A stretch of DNA of 63,341 bases, filler included. It is 8 parts of 8 records of this genome, joined end to end, with 100 filler letters (N's around TTAATTAATTAA, not from the genome) between each part and the next. Parts side by side here need not be neighbours in the genome. Positions count along the whole stretch, not along the records: positions 13,977 to 23,345 come from SRR20825010_867; 7 more parts are not named here. One strand, written 5' to 3'. The notes beneath the pieces were generated by a model that was given only the letters and a program-made list of their open reading frames with translations, was not told the DNA's origin and did no database searches. A program made the translations under genes and the position numbers. This document shows positions 13,877 through 59,548 of this stretch, one piece after another (position 1 is the first letter of the stretch; each line of letters begins with the position of its first letter).

Positions 13877-13976
13877 NNNNNNNNNNNNNNNNNNNNNNNN
13901 NNNNNNNNNNNNNNNNNNNNTTAATTAATTAANNNNNNNNNNNNNNNNNNNNNNNNNNNNNNNNNNNNNNNNNNNN
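13877..13976. other. Artificial contig spacer
   Basis: 44 N + TTAATTAATTAA + 44 N. Confidence 0.99.
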
Positions 13977-14014
13977 AACCCTACCGATAGCTATCGGTAG
14001 GGTTCCTTTTTTTT
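13977..14014 (+). terminator. Perfect palindrome with U tract (terminator/REP-like)
   Basis: AACCCTACCGATAGCTATCGGTAGGGTT followed by CC and a T run. Confidence 0.75.
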
Positions 14015-14062
14015 GTGCTCTCATTCAATTTGGTAAAAAAGCTCATTGCCGAACAATCAGGT

Positions 14063-15034
14063 TTAATTCAAATTAATTTTATCTATTCTACAAGAATTAT
14101 TGAGATGCGAATTTTCTATAAGGATCAAAAGGTTGTTATCGTCAACAAACATAAATTTAGGTCTCATCCTGAGAGGAGCCACCTTCAACAGATTCATGTT
14201 GTCATCGATGGAATAGCTGTAGAGCTTATAATAATCGTCAGCCGCATAAAGGACGTTATGATCTACAACAAAAGTCTCGAAAGTTTTGCTGGTGTTGTTT
14301 TCATCCAATAACGCATGGATCGTCCACTCTTCCATATTGATGATTTTGATTCCATTTTCCATGAAATTTGGACCTCCTTCAACATAATAGGCCAAACTGG
14401 AATTGGGTATCAAATTCGCTAACGCATCTTCAAATGGCTTGAAAATATGATTAACAATATCACCTTCGTCATCCAGTTCAAATTTGACTAAGCCCGTAGG
14501 CGAAACCACTGTTCCGAAGATACAATTAAGACTTTTGTTGTATTCAATGCTTTTGATAGTGCCTTTGAAAGCAACATCGTATGCTTTTTGCTTTCCGGTA
14601 TTTCTGTCATATGATTTAATGGAGCTGAATGAGATATAATAAATGTATTGTTTGTTTGAGATTATCGGATCATACGAACTCGAAAACCCAAAGTCAATTT
14701 CATTTACCTCCATGTTTTCCAAATTAATTATCTGAAATGAGTCACTACCATTATAGAAATAAAATTCATGCGAATTGTTGGGGTTTCCTACTCCAAAAGC
14801 AAGACCTGTAGAAAGAACTGTTAAAGGTCTTTGCACCAATAATTCATTATTGATGTAATCATATGTCTGAATATATGAATCACTCCACTGATTTTGGAAA
14901 AACAACAATTGACCAGTTCCCGACAGGAGAAAAGCTTCATCAGGATTAAACGTTAGTTCAAAAGGCTCTGGGAGCTCATCTGGTTTACATGAAAACATAA
15001 AAAATGCTATAAGAAACAATGTTTGTACTTTCAT
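14063..15034 (-). CDS. Hypothetical lipoprotein, beta-rich (possibly propeller)
   Basis: Signal peptide ending FMFSC; AT-rich; repeated short beta-strand-like segments. Confidence 0.7.
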   Translation of the reverse strand: MKVQTLFLIAFFMFSCKPDELPEPFELTFNPDEAFLLSGTGQLLFFQNQWSDSYIQTYDYINNELLVQRPLTVLSTGLAFGVGNPNNSHEFYFYNGSDSFQIINLENMEVNEIDFGFSSSYDPIISNKQYIYYISFSSIKSYDRNTGKQKAYDVAFKGTIKSIEYNKSLNCIFGTVVSPTGLVKFELDDEGDIVNHIFKPFEDALANLIPNSSLAYYVEGGPNFMENGIKIINMEEWTIHALLDENNTSKTFETFVVDHNVLYAADDYYKLYSYSIDDNMNLLKVAPLRMRPKFMFVDDNNLLILIENSHLNNSCRIDKINLN

Positions 15035-15343
15035 GTTTTTCTTTATTGATTCATGTTTCCGCCCTGACGCGAGCGTCCGCTTATGTTTTTTTTTGTAATT
15101 TATCTAATTTATGATTATCGGAGAATCTATTTTGTTCCTCCATTTTCTCGCCTTTATTGGTGTTATCACACACTCAATAAGAGGAGTCTCAGCATCTGGG
15201 ATTCCTCTTTTTCTTTCACACCAGTCATCAATCTATCTGCCTGCCCTTCAAATAAAATTTCCTCTTCAAATAGAAGATCGATAGATTGCCCCTTAACCCT
15301 AAAGTTGTTAATTGACTTTTTGTAATTTGTAATTTCCTACGCT

Positions 15344-16591
15344 ATGTATATTCCCGAGATTGAGGATGTAAAAAAAGCTCAAAACAAGCTGAGCAAAGTG
15401 GTGATTCACACTCCGCTGCAGCAAAACCTGAATCTTAGCGATAAGTTCAACGCAAACGTATACCTCAAAAGAGAGGACGCACAGGTGGTGAGGTCCTATA
15501 AAATCCGTGGGGCCTACAACAAGCTCATCTCATTAGATAAAAAGAGTCTGGCAAAAGGTGTCGTCTGTGCCAGCGCAGGAAACCACGCTCAGGGCGTGGC
15601 ATTTTCCTGTCAAAAACTTGGTGTAAAAGGAACAATATTTATGCCTGCCCCTACCCCCAAGCAAAAGCTGCAACAGGTACGCATGTTTGGCAAGGACATG
15701 GTGGACATCATTTTGGGGGGCGATACGTTTGATGACGCCTACCAGGCGGCCCGCCAGTTTTGCGATGAACATGAAAGTACTTTTGTTCATCCATTTGATG
15801 ATGAAAAAGTCATAGAGGGGCAAGCCACCATTGGGCTGGAGCTCTTCAGCGATGCGGATTTCAACATTGATTACCTCTTCATTCCCATTGGAGGAGGCGG
15901 CTTATCTGCAGGCGTTTCGAGCGTACTTCACACCCTGAGCCCAAAGACCAAAATCATCGGTGTGGAACCAGAAGGTGCCCCGGCTATGCTGGAGGCCATT
16001 AAAAAAGGAGAAGTGATCACCCTTGACAAAATTGACAAATTCGTTGACGGAGCAGCCGTGAAGCGTGTTGGAGAATTGACTTTACCACTGTGCAAAAAAT
16101 TTGTTGACGAGATCGCCCTTGTTAACGAAGGCAAGCTTTGCTCCTCGCTTATCAATATGTACAACGAAAGTGGGATTATACTGGAGCCAGCTGGTGCGCT
16201 TTCGGTAGCGGTACTCGATCAATATGCTGATAAAATCAAGGGAAAAAATGTAGTCTGTGTGCTCTCTGGGAGCAACAATGACATCACCCGTACAGAGGAA
16301 ATTCGTGAGAGGTCTTTGTTATATGAAGGACTGATGCACTATTTCATTGTGCGCTTTCCACAACGAGCCGGTGCTTTGAAGGAATTTGTAAGTGAAATTC
16401 TCGGGCCGGAAGATGATATTATTCATTTCGAATACACCAAAAAAAACTCCCGCGAAAAAGGTTCCGCCGTAGTTGGTGTAGAACTTAAAAGCAGGAAGGA
16501 TTTCGACCCGCTGCTTGAAAGAATGAAAGAACACAACTTCTTCGGCGAATACCTCAATCACAAACCGGATTTGTTCAATTACATCGTTTGA
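15344..16591 (+). CDS. ilvA: Threonine ammonia-lyase (short form, one regulatory domain)
   Basis: KRED..VRSYKIRGA PLP lysine, ASAGNHAQG, GGGGL, FPQRAGALKEF. Confidence 0.95.
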   Translation: MYIPEIEDVKKAQNKLSKVVIHTPLQQNLNLSDKFNANVYLKREDAQVVRSYKIRGAYNKLISLDKKSLAKGVVCASAGNHAQGVAFSCQKLGVKGTIFMPAPTPKQKLQQVRMFGKDMVDIILGGDTFDDAYQAARQFCDEHESTFVHPFDDEKVIEGQATIGLELFSDADFNIDYLFIPIGGGGLSAGVSSVLHTLSPKTKIIGVEPEGAPAMLEAIKKGEVITLDKIDKFVDGAAVKRVGELTLPLCKKFVDEIALVNEGKLCSSLINMYNESGIILEPAGALSVAVLDQYADKIKGKNVVCVLSGSNNDITRTEEIRERSLLYEGLMHYFIVRFPQRAGALKEFVSEILGPEDDIIHFEYTKKNSREKGSAVVGVELKSRKDFDPLLERMKEHNFFGEYLNHKPDLFNYIV

Positions 16592-16695
16592 GCAGCGAAA
16601 GAATATTCCAAAATACTTATTAGGATCACCCAGTAGTCTTAAATTCGCAGTTGGATTTCGAAAGAGGAGGGAAAAGCAAAATCAATCGTTTTAAG

Positions 16696-19131
16696 ATGAA
16701 AGTATTAAAATTTGGTGGCACATCAGTCGGATCGGAAGAAGCGATCAGACAAGTAGCCAAAATTGTCATTGGTAAAGCACAAACTGATAAGGTTATTGTC
16801 GTGGTGTCTGCCGTTGGGGGAATCACGGATAAACTGCTTAAAATAGGGGAATTGGCCGAGAACGGAAACCCTGCTTATCAGGACGCCATTCAGGAATTGC
16901 GATCACTGCACGAAACACTCTATAAATCACTCACCAAAGATTCCAAAAGCGAGCAAATCGCCGGCATCATAAGCGAATTGGAAGAAATCTGTCGTGGGGT
17001 TTTTCTTCTTAAGGAACTTACCCCAAGAAGCAGCGACTATATCGTCAGCACAGGCGAGCGACTTTCATCATTTATAATAGCAGCTTTTATCAGCCAAAGC
17101 TTTGCTGATACGGCACTGTTTGATTCCCGTGAAGTTCTCAAAACGGACAAACAGTTTGGCAATGCCAATGTGGACTTTGAAGTTTCCGGAAAACTTGTTT
17201 CAGCACTAAAATTCAAGCAAGTAAATATTTTCCCAGGCTTTATAGCTTCCACACCCGATAATGAAACCATAACGCTTGGTCGTGGAGGGTCAGATTATAC
17301 AGCCGCCATTTTAGCCAAATTGATCAATTCGAGTGATCTGGAAATATGGACCGACGTTGATGGTATCATGACTGCCGATCCACGATTGGTGAAACAAGCG
17401 CATTTCATCGAACATATATCTTACGAAGAGGCACTTGAACTTTCGCATTTTGGCGCAAAGGTGATTTACCCACCAAGTATCCAACCTGCTTTGGAAATCG
17501 GTATACCCATCATCATCAAAAACACATTCAACCCGGAACATCAGGGAACAGAAATCACCAAAGAATGGGACGAGGACAAACAACTCATACGTGGAATCAC
17601 GAGCATAAAAGACATCAGCCTGATCAATCTCTCAGGTGGTGGTATGGTTGGAATTCCCAGTTTCTCCTTTCGCTTATTTAAAGCGCTTTCAGAAAATAAA
17701 ATCAACATCATCCTGATCACTCAGGCGTCATCCGAGCACACCATCACCGTGGGAATTGCCACAAAAGATGCGAAAACGGCTGTAGCATGCCTGAACGCGG
17801 AATTTAAAGCAGAAATTAAGAGCAACTCTATCAACCCAATTGAAGCGGAAGACGACCTATCCATTATAGCGTTGGTTGGTGCCAACATGCGAAATCAGGT
17901 TGGTGTAAGCGGACAAATGTTTAATGTGCTCGGTAGAAATGGGGTTAGCATCAAGGCCATCGCACAAGGTTCATCCGAAAGGAACATATCTGCGGTAATT
18001 ACCCGTGAGGATTTGGACAAGGCACTAAACGTGCTTCACGAGAGCTTCTTCCTGTCCAACATGAAACGTATCAATCTGTTCATCATAGGAACAGGAAATG
18101 TTGGAAAGGCATTCATCAAGCAGCTCACCGGCCAGTTTGCCTATTTAAAAAAGCAACACAACCTCAATATCAAAATCATTGGATTGGCCAACTCCAGAAA
18201 AATGGCTTTCATGAAAGACGGCATTCCACTTTCCAAATGGGAGGAAAAGATGAGTGAGTCAACTGAAAAATTTGACCGTAAGTCGTTTTTCGAATACATG
18301 GAAAACTACAACCTTCGTAATTCCATTTTTGTCGATATCACAGGATCGCCGGAAATAGCAGGTATGTATCCTGATATCCTGAAAGAAAGTGTATCGGTGG
18401 TTACTCCAAACAAGATCGCTGCAACAGGGAGGTTTGAAGATTACCTGGCCTTAAAAGACACCTCCAAGCGATTTGGAAGTCACTTTTTGTTTGAAACCAA
18501 TGTTTGCGCTGGCCTTCCGGTACTTTCTACTTTATCAGATTTAATCAAATCTGGTGATCAGATTCATTCAGTAGAGGCGGTACTTTCGGGCACCCTCAAT
18601 TTCCTTTTCAACGAATACAATGGAAAAGAGAAGTTTGTAGACATAATAAAAAAGGCAAAAGAAATGGGCTACACCGAACCCGATCCTCGTTTGGATCTTT
18701 TCTGTGAGGATGTGAAAAGAAAAATACTTATTCTAATCCGGGAAAGCGGTTATGTGCATGAATTGGATGAAATTTCGCTGGAATCATTCCTGCCACAGAG
18801 CTGCGTGGACAGTACGTCCATTGAAGATTTTTATGCGAAAGTAGAAAAGGAAGAAGCTCACTTTAAAGCCATCTATGAAAAATCAAAGGCGAACAAAGCT
18901 CAATTGAGGGTCGTGGCAAGCTACAAAAACGGAGCAGCCTCAGTTGGCTTAAAAGAAATTTCATCGGAACATCCATTCTTCTATCTCGAAGGAAGCGACA
19001 ACATCGTCCTTTTCTTCACCAATCGCTACAAAGCTCAGCCTTTGGTGATCAAAGGGGCTGGTGCAGGAGCTGATGTTACAGCCTCAGGAATATTTGCAGA
19101 TGTATTACGAATTGCCCAATCGAACTATTGA
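16696..19131 (+). CDS. thrA: Bifunctional aspartokinase / homoserine dehydrogenase I
   Basis: KVLKFGGTS, LGRGGSDY, two ACT domains, GTGNVG, YTEPDPR, GAGADVTA. Confidence 0.97.
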   Translation: MKVLKFGGTSVGSEEAIRQVAKIVIGKAQTDKVIVVVSAVGGITDKLLKIGELAENGNPAYQDAIQELRSLHETLYKSLTKDSKSEQIAGIISELEEICRGVFLLKELTPRSSDYIVSTGERLSSFIIAAFISQSFADTALFDSREVLKTDKQFGNANVDFEVSGKLVSALKFKQVNIFPGFIASTPDNETITLGRGGSDYTAAILAKLINSSDLEIWTDVDGIMTADPRLVKQAHFIEHISYEEALELSHFGAKVIYPPSIQPALEIGIPIIIKNTFNPEHQGTEITKEWDEDKQLIRGITSIKDISLINLSGGGMVGIPSFSFRLFKALSENKINIILITQASSEHTITVGIATKDAKTAVACLNAEFKAEIKSNSINPIEAEDDLSIIALVGANMRNQVGVSGQMFNVLGRNGVSIKAIAQGSSERNISAVITREDLDKALNVLHESFFLSNMKRINLFIIGTGNVGKAFIKQLTGQFAYLKKQHNLNIKIIGLANSRKMAFMKDGIPLSKWEEKMSESTEKFDRKSFFEYMENYNLRNSIFVDITGSPEIAGMYPDILKESVSVVTPNKIAATGRFEDYLALKDTSKRFGSHFLFETNVCAGLPVLSTLSDLIKSGDQIHSVEAVLSGTLNFLFNEYNGKEKFVDIIKKAKEMGYTEPDPRLDLFCEDVKRKILILIRESGYVHELDEISLESFLPQSCVDSTSIEDFYAKVEKEEAHFKAIYEKSKANKAQLRVVASYKNGAASVGLKEISSEHPFFYLEGSDNIVLFFTNRYKAQPLVIKGAGAGADVTASGIFADVLRIAQSNY

Positions 19132-19134
19132 TTT

Positions 19135-20064
19135 ATGAATGAAGTAAAAGTTTTTGCTCCCGCTTCAGTAGCGAATGTTGGCTGTGGTTACGATACCATT
19201 GGTTTCGCCATAGACGGACTTGGAGACGAAATCACCATGTCCAAAAGAAGTGATTCTGCGCTTGTAATTAAAGACATCATTGGTGCTGACCTTCCTATGG
19301 AACCGGAAGAGAACGTGGCATCCATCGCTGTAAAGGCGTTGCTGGATCACCTTGGTTCAAAGCAAGGGTTTGATATTACTATCAAGAAGCTTTTTAAACC
19401 GGGTAGTGGCTTGGGATCCAGTGCATCAAGTGCTGCCGGAGCTGTATTTGCAGCTAATATCCTTTTGGGCGAGCCAATTGAAGAGAAGCAGGACTTGCTT
19501 CAGTTTGCCCTGGAGGGAGAGGCTTTTGCATCGAAGTGCTATCATGCGGACAATGTTGCCCCTTCTTTGATGGGTGGCTTCAACGTGATCAGAAGCTACG
19601 AGCCCGTTTTGGATATCTTTCAAGTAAATGTTCCGTCAGACCTTTGGGTACTGATCGTTTTCCCCGATGTGGTTATCAAAACCGCCGAATCTAAGAAACT
19701 GATACCTACTACACTAAGTATAAAAGATGCCAGAGATCAATGGTCGAATGTAGCAGGTTTAATACAAGCCTTTAATACGCATGATTTTGTATTGTTGAAA
19801 AAATCAGTGACCGATTTGATCGCAGAGCCAGTTCGGAAAGGATTTATACCAGGTTACGATCAGGTAAAAGAACTAGTTTTTGAAAGTGGCAGTGTTGGAT
19901 TCAATATTTCAGGGTCAGGCCCAAGCATGTTTGCCTTTTTTAAGAATGAAAAAGAAATGAACAAGGCAAAGCCTGGAATTCGAAAACTTTACGAAGAAAA
20001 AAACTTACCAGTAATTCTTCATTCATCTAAAATCAACCTTCATGGTTGTGAGATTATAGGGTAA
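19135..20064 (+). CDS. thrB: Homoserine kinase
   Basis: APASVANVGCGYD, PGSGLGSSASSA GHMP motif, HADNVAP, ISGSGPS. Confidence 0.96.
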   Translation: MNEVKVFAPASVANVGCGYDTIGFAIDGLGDEITMSKRSDSALVIKDIIGADLPMEPEENVASIAVKALLDHLGSKQGFDITIKKLFKPGSGLGSSASSAAGAVFAANILLGEPIEEKQDLLQFALEGEAFASKCYHADNVAPSLMGGFNVIRSYEPVLDIFQVNVPSDLWVLIVFPDVVIKTAESKKLIPTTLSIKDARDQWSNVAGLIQAFNTHDFVLLKKSVTDLIAEPVRKGFIPGYDQVKELVFESGSVGFNISGSGPSMFAFFKNEKEMNKAKPGIRKLYEEKNLPVILHSSKINLHGCEIIG

Positions 20065-20091
20065 CAGGGGCTATCAATTCATAACGGAAAC

Positions 20092-21378
20092 ATGAAATTT
20101 TACAGTACAAAGGGAAAAAGTGAAGTAGTGTCTTTCAGAGAAGGTGTCATCAAAGGACTCCCAGATGATAACGGTCTCTTTTTTCCCGAGTTCATTCCTA
20201 AATTGAATCTTGATTTTCTTAAGTCCTTAAAAAACCACACCCTTCCTGAAATCGGAACAGAAGTCATGCGGCATTTCACTCATGAGGACATTCAGGGAGC
20301 TAAGCTGGAGCAAATCATGGGCGAGGTTCTCGATTTTGAGATCCCCGTAAAAAAAATAACCAGCAATATCTCCAGTCTGGAGCTGTTTCATGGTCCTACT
20401 TATGCATTCAAAGACGTTGGGGCTCGTTTTCTTGCGAGATGCCTGGGGTATTTCAATGAATCAGATAATAAGGAGATAACCATTCTTGTAGCCACTTCTG
20501 GAGATACAGGTGGAGCTGTGGCAGCAGGTTTTTATAAAGTTCCCGGTGTTAAAGTAGTCATCCTTTATCCATCTGGAAAAGTAAGTGAACTGCAGGAAAA
20601 GCAATTAACCACCCTTGGTGAGAATATAACCGCATTGGAAATTGATGGCGATTTTGATGATTGTCAGGCCTTGGTGAAAACCGCTTTTCTAGATAAGGAG
20701 ATCAACGCGAAATTATCCTTATCCTCTGCCAATTCGATAAACATTGCACGTTGGCTGCCTCAGTCCATCTATTATTACGAGGCGCTAAAACAGCTTGAGT
20801 CTGATAATCCAGTCGTTATTTCAGTTCCAAGTGGAAACTACGGAAATATCACAGCAGGAATGCTGGCTAAAAAAATGGGTCTACCCATACATCGATTCAT
20901 TGCAGCATCAAATGCAAATGACATTGTGCCAAGGTATATAAAGAACGGTGTTTACGAGATTCAACCGACAGTTGCCACTCTCAGCAACGCCATGGACGTC
21001 AGTAACCCGAGTAATTTCCCTCGAATGATGGAATTGTACAATAAAGACTGGGACGCGGTTAAAAAAGACGTTATTGGCTTTTCTCTTGATGACGCCCACA
21101 CATTAAAAACAATGGCCAATTGCGAGAAAACAACCAAATACATATTGGATCCACATGGAGCGGTTGGTTTTGAAGCGCTCACCCAGATTTTGGATAAAAA
21201 CGAGCAAGGCATTTTCCTTGAAACGGCGCATCCATGCAAATTTATTGACACAGTTGAAAAGGCACTTAACCAAAAAATAAGTCTCCCAACCTTTGTGGAA
21301 GGATTGATGAAAAAAGAGAAAACCTCCTCAAGATTGAATAAGGACTTTCAAGGATTTAAGGCCTATCTGCTAAGCTAA
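20092..21378 (+). CDS. thrC: Threonine synthase
   Basis: LELFHGPTYAFKD, ATSGDTG, SANSINIAR, VPSGNYGN. Confidence 0.97.
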   Translation: MKFYSTKGKSEVVSFREGVIKGLPDDNGLFFPEFIPKLNLDFLKSLKNHTLPEIGTEVMRHFTHEDIQGAKLEQIMGEVLDFEIPVKKITSNISSLELFHGPTYAFKDVGARFLARCLGYFNESDNKEITILVATSGDTGGAVAAGFYKVPGVKVVILYPSGKVSELQEKQLTTLGENITALEIDGDFDDCQALVKTAFLDKEINAKLSLSSANSINIARWLPQSIYYYEALKQLESDNPVVISVPSGNYGNITAGMLAKKMGLPIHRFIAASNANDIVPRYIKNGVYEIQPTVATLSNAMDVSNPSNFPRMMELYNKDWDAVKKDVIGFSLDDAHTLKTMANCEKTTKYILDPHGAVGFEALTQILDKNEQGIFLETAHPCKFIDTVEKALNQKISLPTFVEGLMKKEKTSSRLNKDFQGFKAYLLS

Positions 21379-21606
21379 CAAAACCACCTACCCCTCGTTT
21401 ATTCCATTTTATCTGTAACTTTTGGCTAAGTTTGAAATTCAGCCAGCGTTTTCAGATCAAAATTTCCTCATTTCTCAGGGCAAAAAACACCTAATTATAG
21501 TCTTTTTGAAAAAAAAAGCTGAAGCAAAAACTTTAAGCACAATACTATATTGCCCTTACTTTCAATTAGTTATGAATCTTAACTAACTGGTTACCAGATA
21601 TTTATC

Positions 21607-21636
21607 TTGTTTTTGTGAATTTTTTATTTAACTTTA
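21607..21636 (+). promoter_or_regulatory. Bacteroidota housekeeping promoter (-33/-7) for the small peptide gene
   Basis: TTG-N19-TAACTTTA against consensus TTG-N19-21-TAnnTTTG. Confidence 0.6.
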
Positions 21637-21676
21637 CACCCGTAATCATTTAATAAAGAATCAAACAACCAGTACT

Positions 21677-21853
21677 ATGAAAAAGATTTTAACTGTATTA
21701 AGTATCGCATTTTGCATCGCTGTAATCGCTCCTTCATGTGCCTCTTCTGACGAAAGCTTTGAAGAAATCGTTTTGAACTCCAATCTTGATCAAACAGCAC
21801 CATCAAATGGAGATGGCAGCACAGATCCAGTACCTGGTCCTGGAGGAGATTGA
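21677..21853 (+). CDS. 58-aa lipoprotein/peptide precursor (below the ORF-track cutoff)
   Basis: Hand translation MKKILTVLSIAFCIAVIAPSCASSDESFEEIVLNSNLDQTAPSNGDGSTDPVPGPGGD; signal peptide with lipobox-like APS-C21; own promoter and terminator. Confidence 0.85.
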   Translation: MKKILTVLSIAFCIAVIAPSCASSDESFEEIVLNSNLDQTAPSNGDGSTDPVPGPGGD

Positions 21854-21874
21854 TAAATACTTGAAAGAAAATAG

Positions 21875-21907
21875 AGGCAGGCAAATCATTTGTCTGCCTT
21901 TTTTTTT
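21875..21907 (+). terminator. Rho-independent terminator after the peptide gene
   Basis: AGGCAGGCAAA-TCA-TTTGTCTGCCT followed by a T run. Confidence 0.85.
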
Positions 21908-21937
21908 AGATTTACGGTTAACGTCAACCAAGCGGCT

Positions 21938-23197
21938 ATGCGATTACCTATGTTTATAGGTTTTTTTGTTTTCATTTTTGCAGCATCAAGTGCTGTAAAA
22001 GACGATATTACCCAAATGCATGAGCAAGCGTACAAGCTTCTAAAGACGAATCCTGAAGAAGCAATGATTTTGGCTCTGCAGTCAGAAGAAATATCAAGAA
22101 AGGAAGGCTTACCATACGAGGAATCCAACTCGCTCTTTATTCAGGCTTGGATTTACAAAATGAACGGCGAACCTGGCAAATCCTTTGTGCTGTATTTGAA
22201 AGCACTTCAAGCCATTAAAGAGGATATTCTAATTGAAAAATCAGCCAAACTTTATACAAATCTCCTTATTGGAACTGGGTCTATTCTGAAAGAACATTAT
22301 GCTTATTCAGAGTCTTTGAGCTATTATGACGAGGGAATTTCAGTTGCTCTAAAATATAAATGGGATTCTAAAATTCAAATATTATATCAAGCCAGGGCAG
22401 GTGTATACCAGGAAATGAGTGCCTTAACAGACGCCCTATTAGATGTTCAAACCTCATTTGAATACGCCAAAAAGCTCAAGGATGTCAATGCAATAGTTAG
22501 TGTGCTCAACAACAAAGGCTTGATTGAAGTTGATTTAAAAATGTATGATCAGGCTCTGGTGACCTACCGGGAAATCCTGGAGTTAGATTTGCCTGAGACT
22601 ATTCGAAATGAATACCATGGAAAAGCCTGGCACAACATAGGACACACTTATATGCAAACAGGAAGAGCGACGGAGGCTCTGGAAGCATTTTTGCGTGCGG
22701 CTGAAGTGAAATCTCGATATCCGGATGATGCAAACCAGTTTATTACCTGGACGGACATTGCCGAGAACTACCTCAACCAGGGCAACTTGAAACTGGCAAG
22801 GGAGTATGGTGAAAAAGCAGTTCAAGCGTATGATAGTATGCCTTTGTCTCCTGATAATTACAGACTGTTTGATCTCATGTCAAACATTGCATTCAAACAA
22901 GGTGAGTATAAACTGTCGCGAAGCTATGTCGAACAATACATGGCCGAGAATAAAGAATTTTTGAACCTTCAAGAAGATCTTATCCGCGTAAAAGATCAGT
23001 ATAAAATGGAAATACTTGCCGCCGGCTTTTTTCTGGAAGTCAATTCAGCTAAGAACACCGACTGGTACACCATGTGGCTGACTATCGTAGGATCGGTGTT
23101 CTCGCTGCTCCTCTTGGTTGGTATTGGTGGACAATATTATGTCCGTCGATCAATCAGAGCCTCCATTCGGAAAATACAGGAAGACAGCTTTATTTAA
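21938..23197 (+). CDS. Exported TPR protein with C-terminal TM anchor and ~20-aa tail
   Basis: N-terminal signal peptide; TPR-like segments (LNNKGLI, WHNIGHTY); TM WLTIVGSVFSLLLLVGIG. Confidence 0.85.
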   Translation: MRLPMFIGFFVFIFAASSAVKDDITQMHEQAYKLLKTNPEEAMILALQSEEISRKEGLPYEESNSLFIQAWIYKMNGEPGKSFVLYLKALQAIKEDILIEKSAKLYTNLLIGTGSILKEHYAYSESLSYYDEGISVALKYKWDSKIQILYQARAGVYQEMSALTDALLDVQTSFEYAKKLKDVNAIVSVLNNKGLIEVDLKMYDQALVTYREILELDLPETIRNEYHGKAWHNIGHTYMQTGRATEALEAFLRAAEVKSRYPDDANQFITWTDIAENYLNQGNLKLAREYGEKAVQAYDSMPLSPDNYRLFDLMSNIAFKQGEYKLSRSYVEQYMAENKEFLNLQEDLIRVKDQYKMEILAAGFFLEVNSAKNTDWYTMWLTIVGSVFSLLLLVGIGGQYYVRRSIRASIRKIQEDSFI

Positions 23198-23216
23198 GCT
23201 TCTCCTATTATCACTT

Positions 23217-23345
23217 CTAAATCCATTTCACTTTTTCTTCCATACTTGTTCTTGGTGGAATCGCTGTAGTCGGCTGGTAGTAACCCATATAAAAAAAACC
23301 AATACAAGATTCGTTCGAATCCAAAGGCGTAAACTCACCAAAATA
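23217..23345 (-). CDS. Nitroreductase family protein, C-terminal fragment
   Basis: Hand translation ...LDSNESCIGFFYMGY...PRTSMEEKVKWI*. Confidence 0.65.
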   Translation of the reverse strand, partial: YFGEFTPLDSNESCIGFFYMGYYQPTTAIPPRTSMEEKVKWI

Positions 23346-23445
23346 NNNNNNNNNNNNNNNNNNNNNNNNNNNNNNNNNNNNNNNNNNNNTTAATTAATTA
23401 ANNNNNNNNNNNNNNNNNNNNNNNNNNNNNNNNNNNNNNNNNNNN
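23346..23445. other. Artificial contig spacer
   Basis: N-TTAATTAATTAA-N. Confidence 0.99.
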
Positions 23446-27166: not shown

Positions 27167-27266
27167 NNNNNNNNNNNNNNNNNNNNNNNNNNNNNNNNNN
27201 NNNNNNNNNNTTAATTAATTAANNNNNNNNNNNNNNNNNNNNNNNNNNNNNNNNNNNNNNNNNNNN
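27167..27266. other. Artificial contig spacer
   Basis: N-TTAATTAATTAA-N. Confidence 0.99.
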
Positions 27267-41586: not shown

Positions 41587-41686
41587 NNNNNNNNNNNNNN
41601 NNNNNNNNNNNNNNNNNNNNNNNNNNNNNNTTAATTAATTAANNNNNNNNNNNNNNNNNNNNNNNNNNNNNNNNNNNNNNNNNNNN
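41587..41686. other. Artificial contig spacer
   Basis: N-TTAATTAATTAA-N. Confidence 0.99.
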
Positions 41687-50061: not shown

Positions 50062-50161
50062 NNNNNNNNNNNNNNNNNNNNNNNNNNNNNNNNNNNNNNN
50101 NNNNNTTAATTAATTAANNNNNNNNNNNNNNNNNNNNNNNNNNNNNNNNNNNNNNNNNNNN
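50062..50161. other. Artificial contig spacer
   Basis: N-TTAATTAATTAA-N. Confidence 0.99.
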
Positions 50162-53306: not shown

Positions 53307-53406
53307 NNNNNNNNNNNNNNNNNNNNNNNNNNNNNNNNNNNNNNNNNNNNTTAATTAATTAANNNNNNNNNNNNNNNNNNNNNNNNNNNNNNNNNNNNNN
53401 NNNNNN
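53307..53406. other. Artificial contig spacer
   Basis: N-TTAATTAATTAA-N. Confidence 0.99.
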
Positions 53407-59448: not shown

Positions 59449-59548
59449 NNNNNNNNNNNNNNNNNNNNNNNNNNNNNNNNNNNNNNNNNNNNTTAATTAA
59501 TTAANNNNNNNNNNNNNNNNNNNNNNNNNNNNNNNNNNNNNNNNNNNN
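59449..59548. other. Artificial contig spacer
   Basis: N-TTAATTAATTAA-N. Confidence 0.99.

Follow-up and report, generated by a model that had tools for sequence, protein, structure and literature searches.

A small lipoprotein gene paired with a TPR membrane protein gene in marine Cytophagales: a candidate tethered ligand and its receptor in the cell envelope

The two genes and their pairing

The DNA considered here is a window of 63,341 nucleotides, by which we mean the whole stretch that was analysed, with pieces of eight records joined end to end. One of its contigs (window positions 13933-23346, GC ~40%), whose closest relatives are found in Cyclobacteriaceae metagenome-assembled genomes (MAGs) and in Marinoscillum, carries two consecutive genes on the plus strand: an open reading frame (ORF) of 58 codons at 21677-21853 and a gene for a tetratricopeptide repeat (TPR) protein of 419 residues at 21938-23197. 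A sequence-only reading of the window had proposed that the two make up a peptide-signalling module, with the tail of a small lipoprotein as the signal and the TPR protein as its periplasmic receptor. Comparison of related loci shows the lipoprotein gene and the TPR gene to be conserved as a pair among marine Cytophagales; a model of the complex predicts that the tail of the small protein lies in the groove of the TPR domain.

The product of the small ORF follows a simple plan, in which two lysines (K2K3), a hydrophobic core and the sequence I-A-P-S-C21 are followed by ASSDESFEEIVLNSNLDQTAPSNGDGSTDPVPGPGGD. The signal peptide spans residues 1-20, Cys21 (21737-21739) is the predicted lipidation site, residues 22-42 form a conserved acidic segment and residues 43-58 (21803-21850) constitute a variable tail, SNGDGSTDPVPGPGGD, running from NGD to PGG. 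The signal peptide, lipobox-like A-P-S-C, acidic linker and G/P/D-rich tail described by the sequence-only reading are hence all present in this ORF. Only M1, C21 and P55 are invariant in the peptide alignment; within the close subfamily, the signal peptide and residues 22-42 are 66-77% identical to the window peptide, and the stretch from the NGD motif to the terminal P-G-G is the variable part. A profile search with the peptide returned 35 database proteins of 42-84 residues, all of them unnamed or annotated as hypothetical, which match no Pfam family and no NCBIfam model. The gene is already called in some public records and was missed only through the length cut-off of the sequence-only reading, and its relatives amount to a conserved family of proteins of fewer than 60 residues that bears no family name in Pfam or NCBIfam. 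Fifty-eight codons alone would mean little at 40% GC, and it is because a counterpart occurs in all 29 assessable cassettes that we can state that the ORF is a real gene.

The lipobox-like sequence departs from the usual rule at one position. By the PROSITE-type rule, which we take to be {DERK}(6)-[LIVMFWSTAG](2)-[LIVMFYSTAGCQ]-[AGS]-C, nine of 24 cassette peptides qualify, all from more distant subfamilies, and the full 24 do so once proline is permitted at position -2. The rule is likewise satisfied by five of the 35 database relatives, the remainder and the window peptide (A-P-S-C) failing solely by this proline. An invariant cysteine at the cleavage position would suit a lipoprotein better than a substrate of signal peptidase I, since such substrates in Bacteroidota mostly expose glutamine there, according to PMC5837995. 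The residues beyond the cysteine may also bear on the destination of the protein. As given in PMC6222051, the surface-export signal (LES) of Bacteroides is CS(D/E)2 and that of Capnocytophaga K-(D/E)2 or Q-A-(D/E)2. The window peptide reads C-A-S-S-D-E, with its acidic residues at +5/+6 and not at +3/+4, and the D/E pairs of its relatives fall anywhere from +2 to +6; the LES rule is undefined for Cytophagales.

The TPR gene starts with an ATG at 21938, in frame inside a longer ORF with a TTG start. Its product matches Pfam TPR_12 (2.3e-17) and TPR_2 (3.6e-17), and its AlphaFold model (pLDDT 87.3, pTM 0.74) consists of 16 paired helices and a single long helix (residues 324-417), so that the tandem 34-residue helix-turn-helix repeats of a TPR superhelix are apparent in Pfam, in the model and in Foldseek matches to TPR structures. 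Following an N-terminal signal or anchor (residues 1-22), the superhelix comprises about eight repeats (residues ~24-322; 22007-22903). Next come a conserved stalk motif (residues 338-365; 22949-23032), a membrane helix (residues ~377-398; 23066-23131) and a basic tail (residues 399-419) that ends in S-x-hydrophobic. The helical stalk of the model is ~55 residues long, and the most conserved motif of the family, K-D-Q-Y-K-M-E-x-L-A-A-G-F-F, sits in the long helix. The TPR block is predicted to be periplasmic and the tail cytoplasmic, because positive charges follow the last helix, as the positive-inside rule would have it. The periplasmic TPR domain of the sequence-only reading agrees with this predicted topology; its exported TPR protein next to the small gene is borne out by the adjacency and the N-terminal export segment, but with a C-terminal membrane helix and a cytoplasmic tail the protein is not simply exported. 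The C-termini of the window protein (23132-23194) and of aligned relatives read SFI, SLV, SEV, SSV and GTV, a conserved S-x-hydrophobic ending that resembles a class I PDZ-type ligand motif.

The absence of any evident output module is a regular property of this family. Pfam finds TPR families only in the window protein, with no helix-turn-helix (HTH), HisKA/HATPase or other output domain; the 20 full-length homologues all measure 391-429 residues, and a search for longer, fused relatives gave only generic TPR matches (E >= 7.5e-7). When a profile of the C-terminal 105 residues was searched against 1.84 billion proteins, 156 representatives were found at E <= 1e-3. Among the 150 listed, 124 have 360-460 residues, 24 are shorter fragments and two are longer, and 122 of the 124 carry a C-terminal membrane-like segment. 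Since most listed representatives fall in this size range, the short form without output domain is the normal state of the family.

Relatives of the TPR protein were gathered from the genomes of species, from paralogues in five of those genomes, from genome samples at the level of order and phylum, and from metagenomes. Those in the species genomes were found with an alignment-based scan of contigs, a single-sequence scan having found none. The sequence-only reading had suggested that such homologues be inspected for an upstream small lipoprotein ORF, and one lies directly upstream of the TPR gene, on the same strand, in all 29 cassettes open to assessment (the cut loci L010 and L069 stand outside this count). 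The hallmarks of these ORFs are a signal peptide, a single cysteine ending the hydrophobic core, D/E among the five residues that follow it, a short hydrophobic-acidic stretch and a tail rich in Gly/Asp/Pro. The pairing persists at TPR identities of ~15-25% (15-20% in the C-terminal part), through tandem duplication (L004) and across at least four different gene neighbourhoods.

Several cassettes may coexist in one genome. A single MAG contains four full cassettes (L004 4118-7820, L009 and L028), two of them in tandem and all with different tails, and genome G005 has at least four diverged cassettes, three with HTH paralogues. The cultured Marinoscillum furvescens DSM 4134 contains the cassettes of L008 and L022. 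The family, whose taxonomic range was read from the record titles of its relatives, is nevertheless a rare one, being found in 3/301 genomes sampled from the order (with five candidates scored per genome) and in 7/401 genomes sampled from the phylum, with strong matches in just two. One record titled Rickettsiales bacterium (L012) contains a Marinoscillum-like cassette with a layout almost identical to that of L007, and its label is probably a binning error.

Regulatory DNA and gene neighbourhood

The DNA that precedes the small gene is better conserved than the TPR protein. Over ~110 nt upstream, the mean column identity among ten related loci (including L001-L005, L009, L011 and L028) is 68%, and the TPR proteins of the close loci are just 31-42% identical to that of the window. 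The ten-locus alignment defines a conserved non-coding element at 21529-21604 (plus strand), made up of a ACTTTAAG block (~21529-21544), a half-site copy (~21555-21575) and the palindrome TAACTAACTGG-TTA-CCAGATATTTA (21580-21604); the inverted repeats recur. The palindrome and the third half-site have a common ACTATC/GATAGT core. An RNA leader or riboswitch was considered and rejected (RNAalifold energy -5.67 kcal/mol, covariation term +0.49, 1/10 compensatory pairs). A site acting at the DNA level is more likely because RNA covariation is missing, and the element looks like protein-binding, operator-like DNA. An Rfam scan of 21300-23346 gave a best E of 0.14, all matches lying far under the gathering scores. 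In distant subfamilies the small genes are preceded by a related half-site, ATAACTAYCTGAT, of which five genomes contain 13 exact copies, as against four for a reversed control. Cassettes account for only two of these copies, and the 11 other sites inspected mostly fall within genes, so that no clear motif-based ATAACTAYCTGAT regulon emerges.

Bacteroidota promoters conform to the consensus TTG/TTTG and TAnnTTTG. In the putative promoter of its own that had been assigned to the small gene, the -33 TTG (21607-21609) and the -7 TAACTTTA (21629-21636), spaced by 19 nt on the plus strand, are both conserved columns among the ten upstream regions. The terminator-like structure assigned to the same gene also recurs. 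Between the two genes, the sequence at 21873-21908 (plus strand) has a G+C-rich hairpin (a 13-bp stem at 21873-21901) and an ensuing T-run like those of an intrinsic terminator, and a hairpin with T-run occupies this place in 19/24 cassettes, with stems that differ in sequence. To judge from this arrangement, the hairpin would be a conserved partial stop yielding more peptide than receptor transcript. Just past it, TAGATTTACGGTTAACGTCAAC (21907-21930, plus strand) contains a motif, TA(G/T)ATTTACGCTTAACG, that recurs in most close relatives and may be a -7 box or a leader for the TPR gene. A further motif, GCGGTG(A/G)A...ACAGAA/ATAGAG, stands directly before terminator-like hairpins at unrelated positions: between small gene and hairpin in L006, L007, L012 and L013, and upstream of an HTH gene in L034, L036 and L037.

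A third gene accompanies part of the cassettes. In 8/29 of them (L021, L022, L023, L025, L039, L064, L065 and L068, which represent three diverged subfamilies), a convergent XRE-type HTH gene of 151-166 residues, with a helical C-terminal half, lies beside the TPR gene and sometimes overlaps its end. Four of these were identified by Pfam HTH_3, that of L039 by homology and the other three by evident similarity in the ORF listing. One genome holds three triads of small gene, TPR gene and HTH gene, with diverged HTH paralogues. In the subfamily of the window, the downstream neighbours of the cassette are a nitroreductase and a CHAT-TPR protein, and two genomes of this subfamily possess a single HTH orthologue (60-61% identical) beside the membrane-protein and acylase-like genes that flank triads elsewhere. 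Because this orphan orthologue keeps the flanking genes of the triads, the gene order suggests that the cassette was lost from, or relocated out of, the HTH locus in the subfamily of the window.

Upstream of the orphan or linked HTH gene there is a further conserved element, ~150 nt long (L034 ~1260-1490, L036/L037 ~1260-1450), in which two terminator-like hairpins accompany a perfect palindrome, TACTATCA-NN-TGATAGTA. It might serve as an autoregulatory operator or yield a small RNA; an Rfam scan of the three HTH loci gave no match. The HTH-linked subfamily also features, upstream of the small gene, a divergent gene for a lipoprotein of 144-169 residues that bears the motif C-x-x-K-G-C-W-M (L022 3147-3638, plus strand; L023 32-517, L064 1611-2120, L065 1607-2113 and L068 1501-1935, all minus strand), and beyond it, in conserved synteny, genes for a 123-residue membrane protein and an acylase-like protein.

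A product with a conserved leader and N-terminal part and a variable C-terminal part is reminiscent of a pheromone precursor, and the conjunction of XRE-HTH, TPR and small peptide gene in one module, together with the presence of several cassettes with different tails in one genome, would also fit a diffusible quorum peptide of RRNPP type, whose tail would be cleaved off and set free, to be detected by TPR domains on other cells nearby. Against this, the invariant cysteine in a lipobox-like context points to a tethered product, the receptor is extracytoplasmic and has no HTH, and the neighbourhoods examined contain no conserved gene for a protease, an exporter or an Opp-type importer. We consider such a diffusible signal to be decidedly improbable.

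The remainder of the contig is of interest mainly as context. Its gene order comprises a lipoprotein gene (minus strand), a threonine-dehydratase-like gene, aspartokinase/homoserine dehydrogenase, homoserine kinase, threonine synthase (77% identical to its counterpart in L001), the small ORF, the TPR gene and the 3' end of a nitroreductase-family gene. The latter (23217-23345, minus strand) is convergent with the TPR gene and cut by the contig end; its last 42 codons are 57% identical over 42 residues to the L001 neighbour, which has a Pfam Nitroreductase match, and it is a neighbour outside the module. Two genes downstream of the cassette, L001 (7078-11106, minus strand) encodes a CHAT-domain protein with many TPRs, of 1342-1411 residues among the loci, which occurs in the same place in L002, L003 and L005 and is probably located past the contig end in the window. 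The window itself has seven joints, consisting of N-runs and TTAATTAATTAA, at 13921-13932, 23347-23401, 27211-27222, 41631-41642, 50106-50117, 53351-53362 and 59493-59504. The GC of the joined pieces spans 0.37 to 0.68, which marks the stretch as a mixed bin or a metagenome record, and adjacent pieces may stem from different organisms.

A predicted complex and its possible meaning

Modelling of the tail with the TPR domain, one of the checks put forward by the sequence-only reading, was carried out on the TPR protein from residue 20 to residue 378 together with peptide residues 21-58. Three runs gave ipSAE values of 0.74, 0.76 and 0.75, as opposed to 0.01, 0.00 and 0.04 for the controls, a margin of 0.71 between 0.75 and the best control. 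The pass mark applied to such models is reached by 51/78 solved complexes and by 2/108 mismatched pairs. The runs share at least 81% of their contacts and the partner pLDDT is at least 53. Confident contacts are limited to peptide residues 43-57, all of them on the concave face of the TPR domain, where the model places the aspartate of the NGD motif (D46) on K229, H232, N233 and N191, and P53-P55 on F67, I68, W71, N108, I111 and G112, with P55 also touching Y32 and N64. Among the residues of the groove that make contacts, N191 and N233 are invariant and H28, Y32, I68, H232 and T270 are at least 90% conserved, and P55, which is in predicted contact with the groove, is the sole invariant residue of the peptide after the cysteine. 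The tail is thus predicted to occupy the TPR groove in the manner of a ligand, which offers a residue-level hypothesis of binding.

Co-variation between tail and receptor, as envisaged by the sequence-only reading, was detected, albeit weakly. In 16 pairs from the closer subfamilies, a partial Mantel test of groove (37 contact positions) against tail distances, with the rest of the TPR domain controlled for, gave r 0.33 (p 0.003, 5000 permutations), and the net charges of groove and tail are inversely related (Spearman -0.42, p 0.045, n=23). We regard this as suggestive of groove-tail co-variation at the sequence level.

Two genes that are merely co-inherited neighbours, with no interaction between their products, would also be found side by side. 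The binding is that of a model, and blind-drawn neighbouring genes reached the same pass mark in 7/44 cases. Adjacency, order and strand are, however, kept in 29/29 cassettes at very low identity, through duplications and across at least four neighbourhoods, and the complex scores well above its controls; we judge mere co-inheritance to be very improbable.

The reading that we favour, to which we assign a probability of roughly one half, is that the pair consists of a lipid-anchored ligand and a cognate, kinase-less periplasmic TPR receptor working in the cell envelope. From sequences and models we infer lipidation, topology, ligand excess and signalling, the XRE link included. The small protein would be exported and lipidated on Cys21 to leave a membrane-tethered peptide of ~38 residues, the first ~20 conserved and acidic and the last ~16 (NGD ... 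P-G-G) variable. The TPR protein would be held in the inner membrane by its C-terminal helix, with a stalk carrying the eight-repeat superhelix in the periplasm. The tail would extend along the groove, with the NGD aspartate on N191/H232/N233 and the invariant proline on Y32/N64/F67/I68/W71, and the intergenic hairpin would let the ligand outnumber the receptor. Because the TPR protein resembles a Bacteroidota TPR sensor kinase reduced to its sensor half, the receptor might report ligand occupancy across the membrane via its conserved stalk, helix and tail. Occupancy could then indicate whether the lipoprotein remains on the periplasmic side or has been passed on, or else the state of the envelope, and the likeliest receiver would be the XRE-type regulator encoded beside paralogous cassettes. 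Since LES-like residues follow the cysteine, it also seems conceivable that the receptor sees the lipoprotein only while the latter is periplasmic, as PorY does with outbound PorA according to PMC12152298. The periplasmic ligand-receptor pair of the sequence-only reading, with the tail as signal, is in sum upheld as to a conserved pair and predicted tail binding; a signalling output is a proposal.

Several observations weigh against this reading. The three controls of the complex included neither another TPR protein nor a scrambled tail, and the score might therefore stem from a generic habit of the modelling, by which disordered acidic peptides end up in TPR grooves. Taken as a set, the groove residues show no significant excess of conservation over the remaining TPR domain (entropy 1.61 vs 1.85, permutation p 0.08), and the best-conserved mature part of the peptide, residues 22-42, lies outside the confident interface. 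Both the Mantel and the charge tests rest on tails that align poorly, and they remove relatedness only in part. The lipobox of the window peptide, with proline at -2, is non-canonical by the rule assumed above, and the acidic residues after the cysteine resemble CS(D/E)2 with an offset of one to two positions (by the LES rules in PMC6222051); if functional, they would carry the peptide to the cell surface and therefore off a periplasmic receptor. The cytoplasmic part of the TPR protein is limited to ~21 residues, and an output domain is absent. Finally, none of the 16 cassettes of the window subfamily has an adjacent HTH gene, the HTH orthologue residing elsewhere in the genome.

The same evidence of binding and pairing applies equally to a structural tether or scaffold devoid of signalling, in which the lipoprotein, seated in the inner leaflet of the outer membrane, and the stalked inner-membrane TPR protein would bridge or space the two membranes, or dock an envelope machine. 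A long helix (324-417) with no output domain and the lack of an adjacent regulator gene in 21/29 cassettes would be in keeping with such a role. Variable tails and up to four or more diverged cassettes per genome, on the other hand, suit specificity pairs better than a housekeeping strut, and a family as narrow as this one (present in three genomes of the order sample and seven of the phylum sample), with a conserved cytoplasmic tail and kinship to sensor proteins, is hardly what a strut would predict; we hold the tether to be rather unlikely.

The LES-like residues, the position of the conserved 22-42 segment outside the predicted interface and the fact that TPR proteins are often adaptors bring up another possibility, namely that the TPR protein is an escort, retention or sorting factor for the lipoprotein, or that the lipoprotein plugs the groove against another client, with the job of the lipoprotein itself being elsewhere, at the surface or in vesicles. 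Yet no independent function is obvious for a foldless peptide of ~38 residues, it would be uncommon for such a small lipoprotein to have a chaperone dedicated to it one to one, and the terminator predicts an excess of peptide, the opposite of a stoichiometric escort. This seems to us unlikely.

A more elaborate version of the ligand-receptor reading would incorporate the third gene. In this scheme, the module would be a three-part trans-envelope system and a periplasmic counterpart of RRNPP systems: the tail would bind the receptor, the stalk, helix and S-x-hydrophobic tail of which would hold or release an XRE repressor acting on the ACTATC/GATAGT repeats, with orthogonal pairs coexisting in one cell. 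We advance this version tentatively and consider it possible but doubtful. Under the simpler reading of a lipid-anchored ligand and its cognate receptor, too, the diverged pairs found within one genome could be orthogonal recognition modules, and the pair suggests that lipid-tethered peptides can serve as ligands within the Gram-negative envelope.

Comparison with known systems

The RRNPP receptors of Firmicutes (Rap, NprR, PlcR, PrgX) are cytoplasmic TPR receptors with an HTH or phosphatase part, whose peptides return into the cell through Opp after processing and release. The module described here resembles them in that its TPR receptor has beside it a small gene that encodes a secreted pro-peptide, the C-terminal part of which is the (here predicted) ligand, and in the presence of an XRE-type HTH, which is here a separate gene in 8/29 cassettes. 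It differs from them in that its receptor is membrane-anchored, faces the periplasm and lacks an HTH or phosphatase part, in that its ligand has an invariant lipobox cysteine and is probably neither released nor re-imported, and in that its hosts are Bacteroidota instead of Firmicutes. The similarity of the TPR protein to Rap and NprR is generic only (~1e-6 by sequence, with NprR at rank 33 by structure). Membership of RRNPP is hence ruled out, and the module is not filed under this heading because the defining cytoplasmic, HTH-fused receptor is absent; the analogy drawn by the sequence-only reading holds as a formal resemblance, which the XRE-HTH genes beside paralogous cassettes reinforce (XRE-HTH, TPR and small peptide gene).

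Closer relationships are found among the sensor proteins of the same phylum, to which the TPR protein is akin. Outside the family, the next-best TPR matches that these genomes contain have 634-825 residues. Four were checked: in three, a TPR block and a membrane segment precede HisKA_3 and HATPase_c, and the fourth has HATPase_c only. Weak matches to the C-terminal module at the level of the phylum are sensor-type proteins of 631-949 residues, including a kinase adjoining a response regulator and one protein whose C-terminus, judged by eye, is like a SpoIIE-type phosphatase. Upstream of kinase/phosphatase-type genes in L030, L055, L056 and L062, an unsystematic look at the ORF listing found no convincing small lipoprotein ORF. 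The Porphyromonas kinase FimS has eight predicted periplasmic TPRs and a signal that is still described as unknown in PMC11053733. Common to FimS and the TPR protein is a set of about eight periplasmic TPRs flanked by membrane segments. They differ in that the window protein has no HisKA/HATPase_c and ends 21 residues past its membrane helix, and in that for FimS no ligand is known and no partner lipoprotein is reported; the NCBIfam FimS model matches the TPR protein only weakly (3.5e-6, with 25.6 bits where the cut-off is 600).

Among natural structures, the TPR model is matched best by the LGN/Pins domains (TM-score by target 0.72-0.80), in which an eight-repeat superhelix binds a long peptide (of NuMA, Inscuteable or Frmpd) extended along its inner groove. 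These domains are eukaryotic and cytoplasmic and share 13-16% sequence identity with the TPR protein, so that the analogy is one of binding mode and not of kinship. BamD, the PilW/PilF pilotins, Tol-Pal/CpoB and LptM were also considered and dropped, as they have nothing in common with the pair beyond the words lipoprotein or TPR; the PilW/PilF match of the TPR protein (3e-6) is weak and of generic TPR type.

As regards the logic of sensing, RcsF-IgaA and NlpE-CpxA are cases in which an inner-membrane protein senses, within the periplasm, an envelope protein of the cell itself. In the same phylum as the window locus, PorA is a self-made periplasmic ligand of the inner-membrane sensor PorY, as described in PMC12152298. 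The likeness of the pair to these three systems would reside in an exported or lipid-anchored protein of the cell that reports secretion or lipoprotein traffic to an inner-membrane protein; the differences lie in the folds, which are others throughout, and in the output, since those sensors have or feed known kinases. We found no description of the lipoprotein-TPR cassette in the literature covered, which excludes subscription journals. Periplasmic TPR sensor domains are common in Bacteroidota signalling, and in this family a candidate ligand is genetically encoded directly next to such a receptor. With respect to the known pairs of peptide and cognate TPR receptor, what is new here is the predicted location of the encounter, the presumed tethering of the ligand and a receptor that has no output domain.

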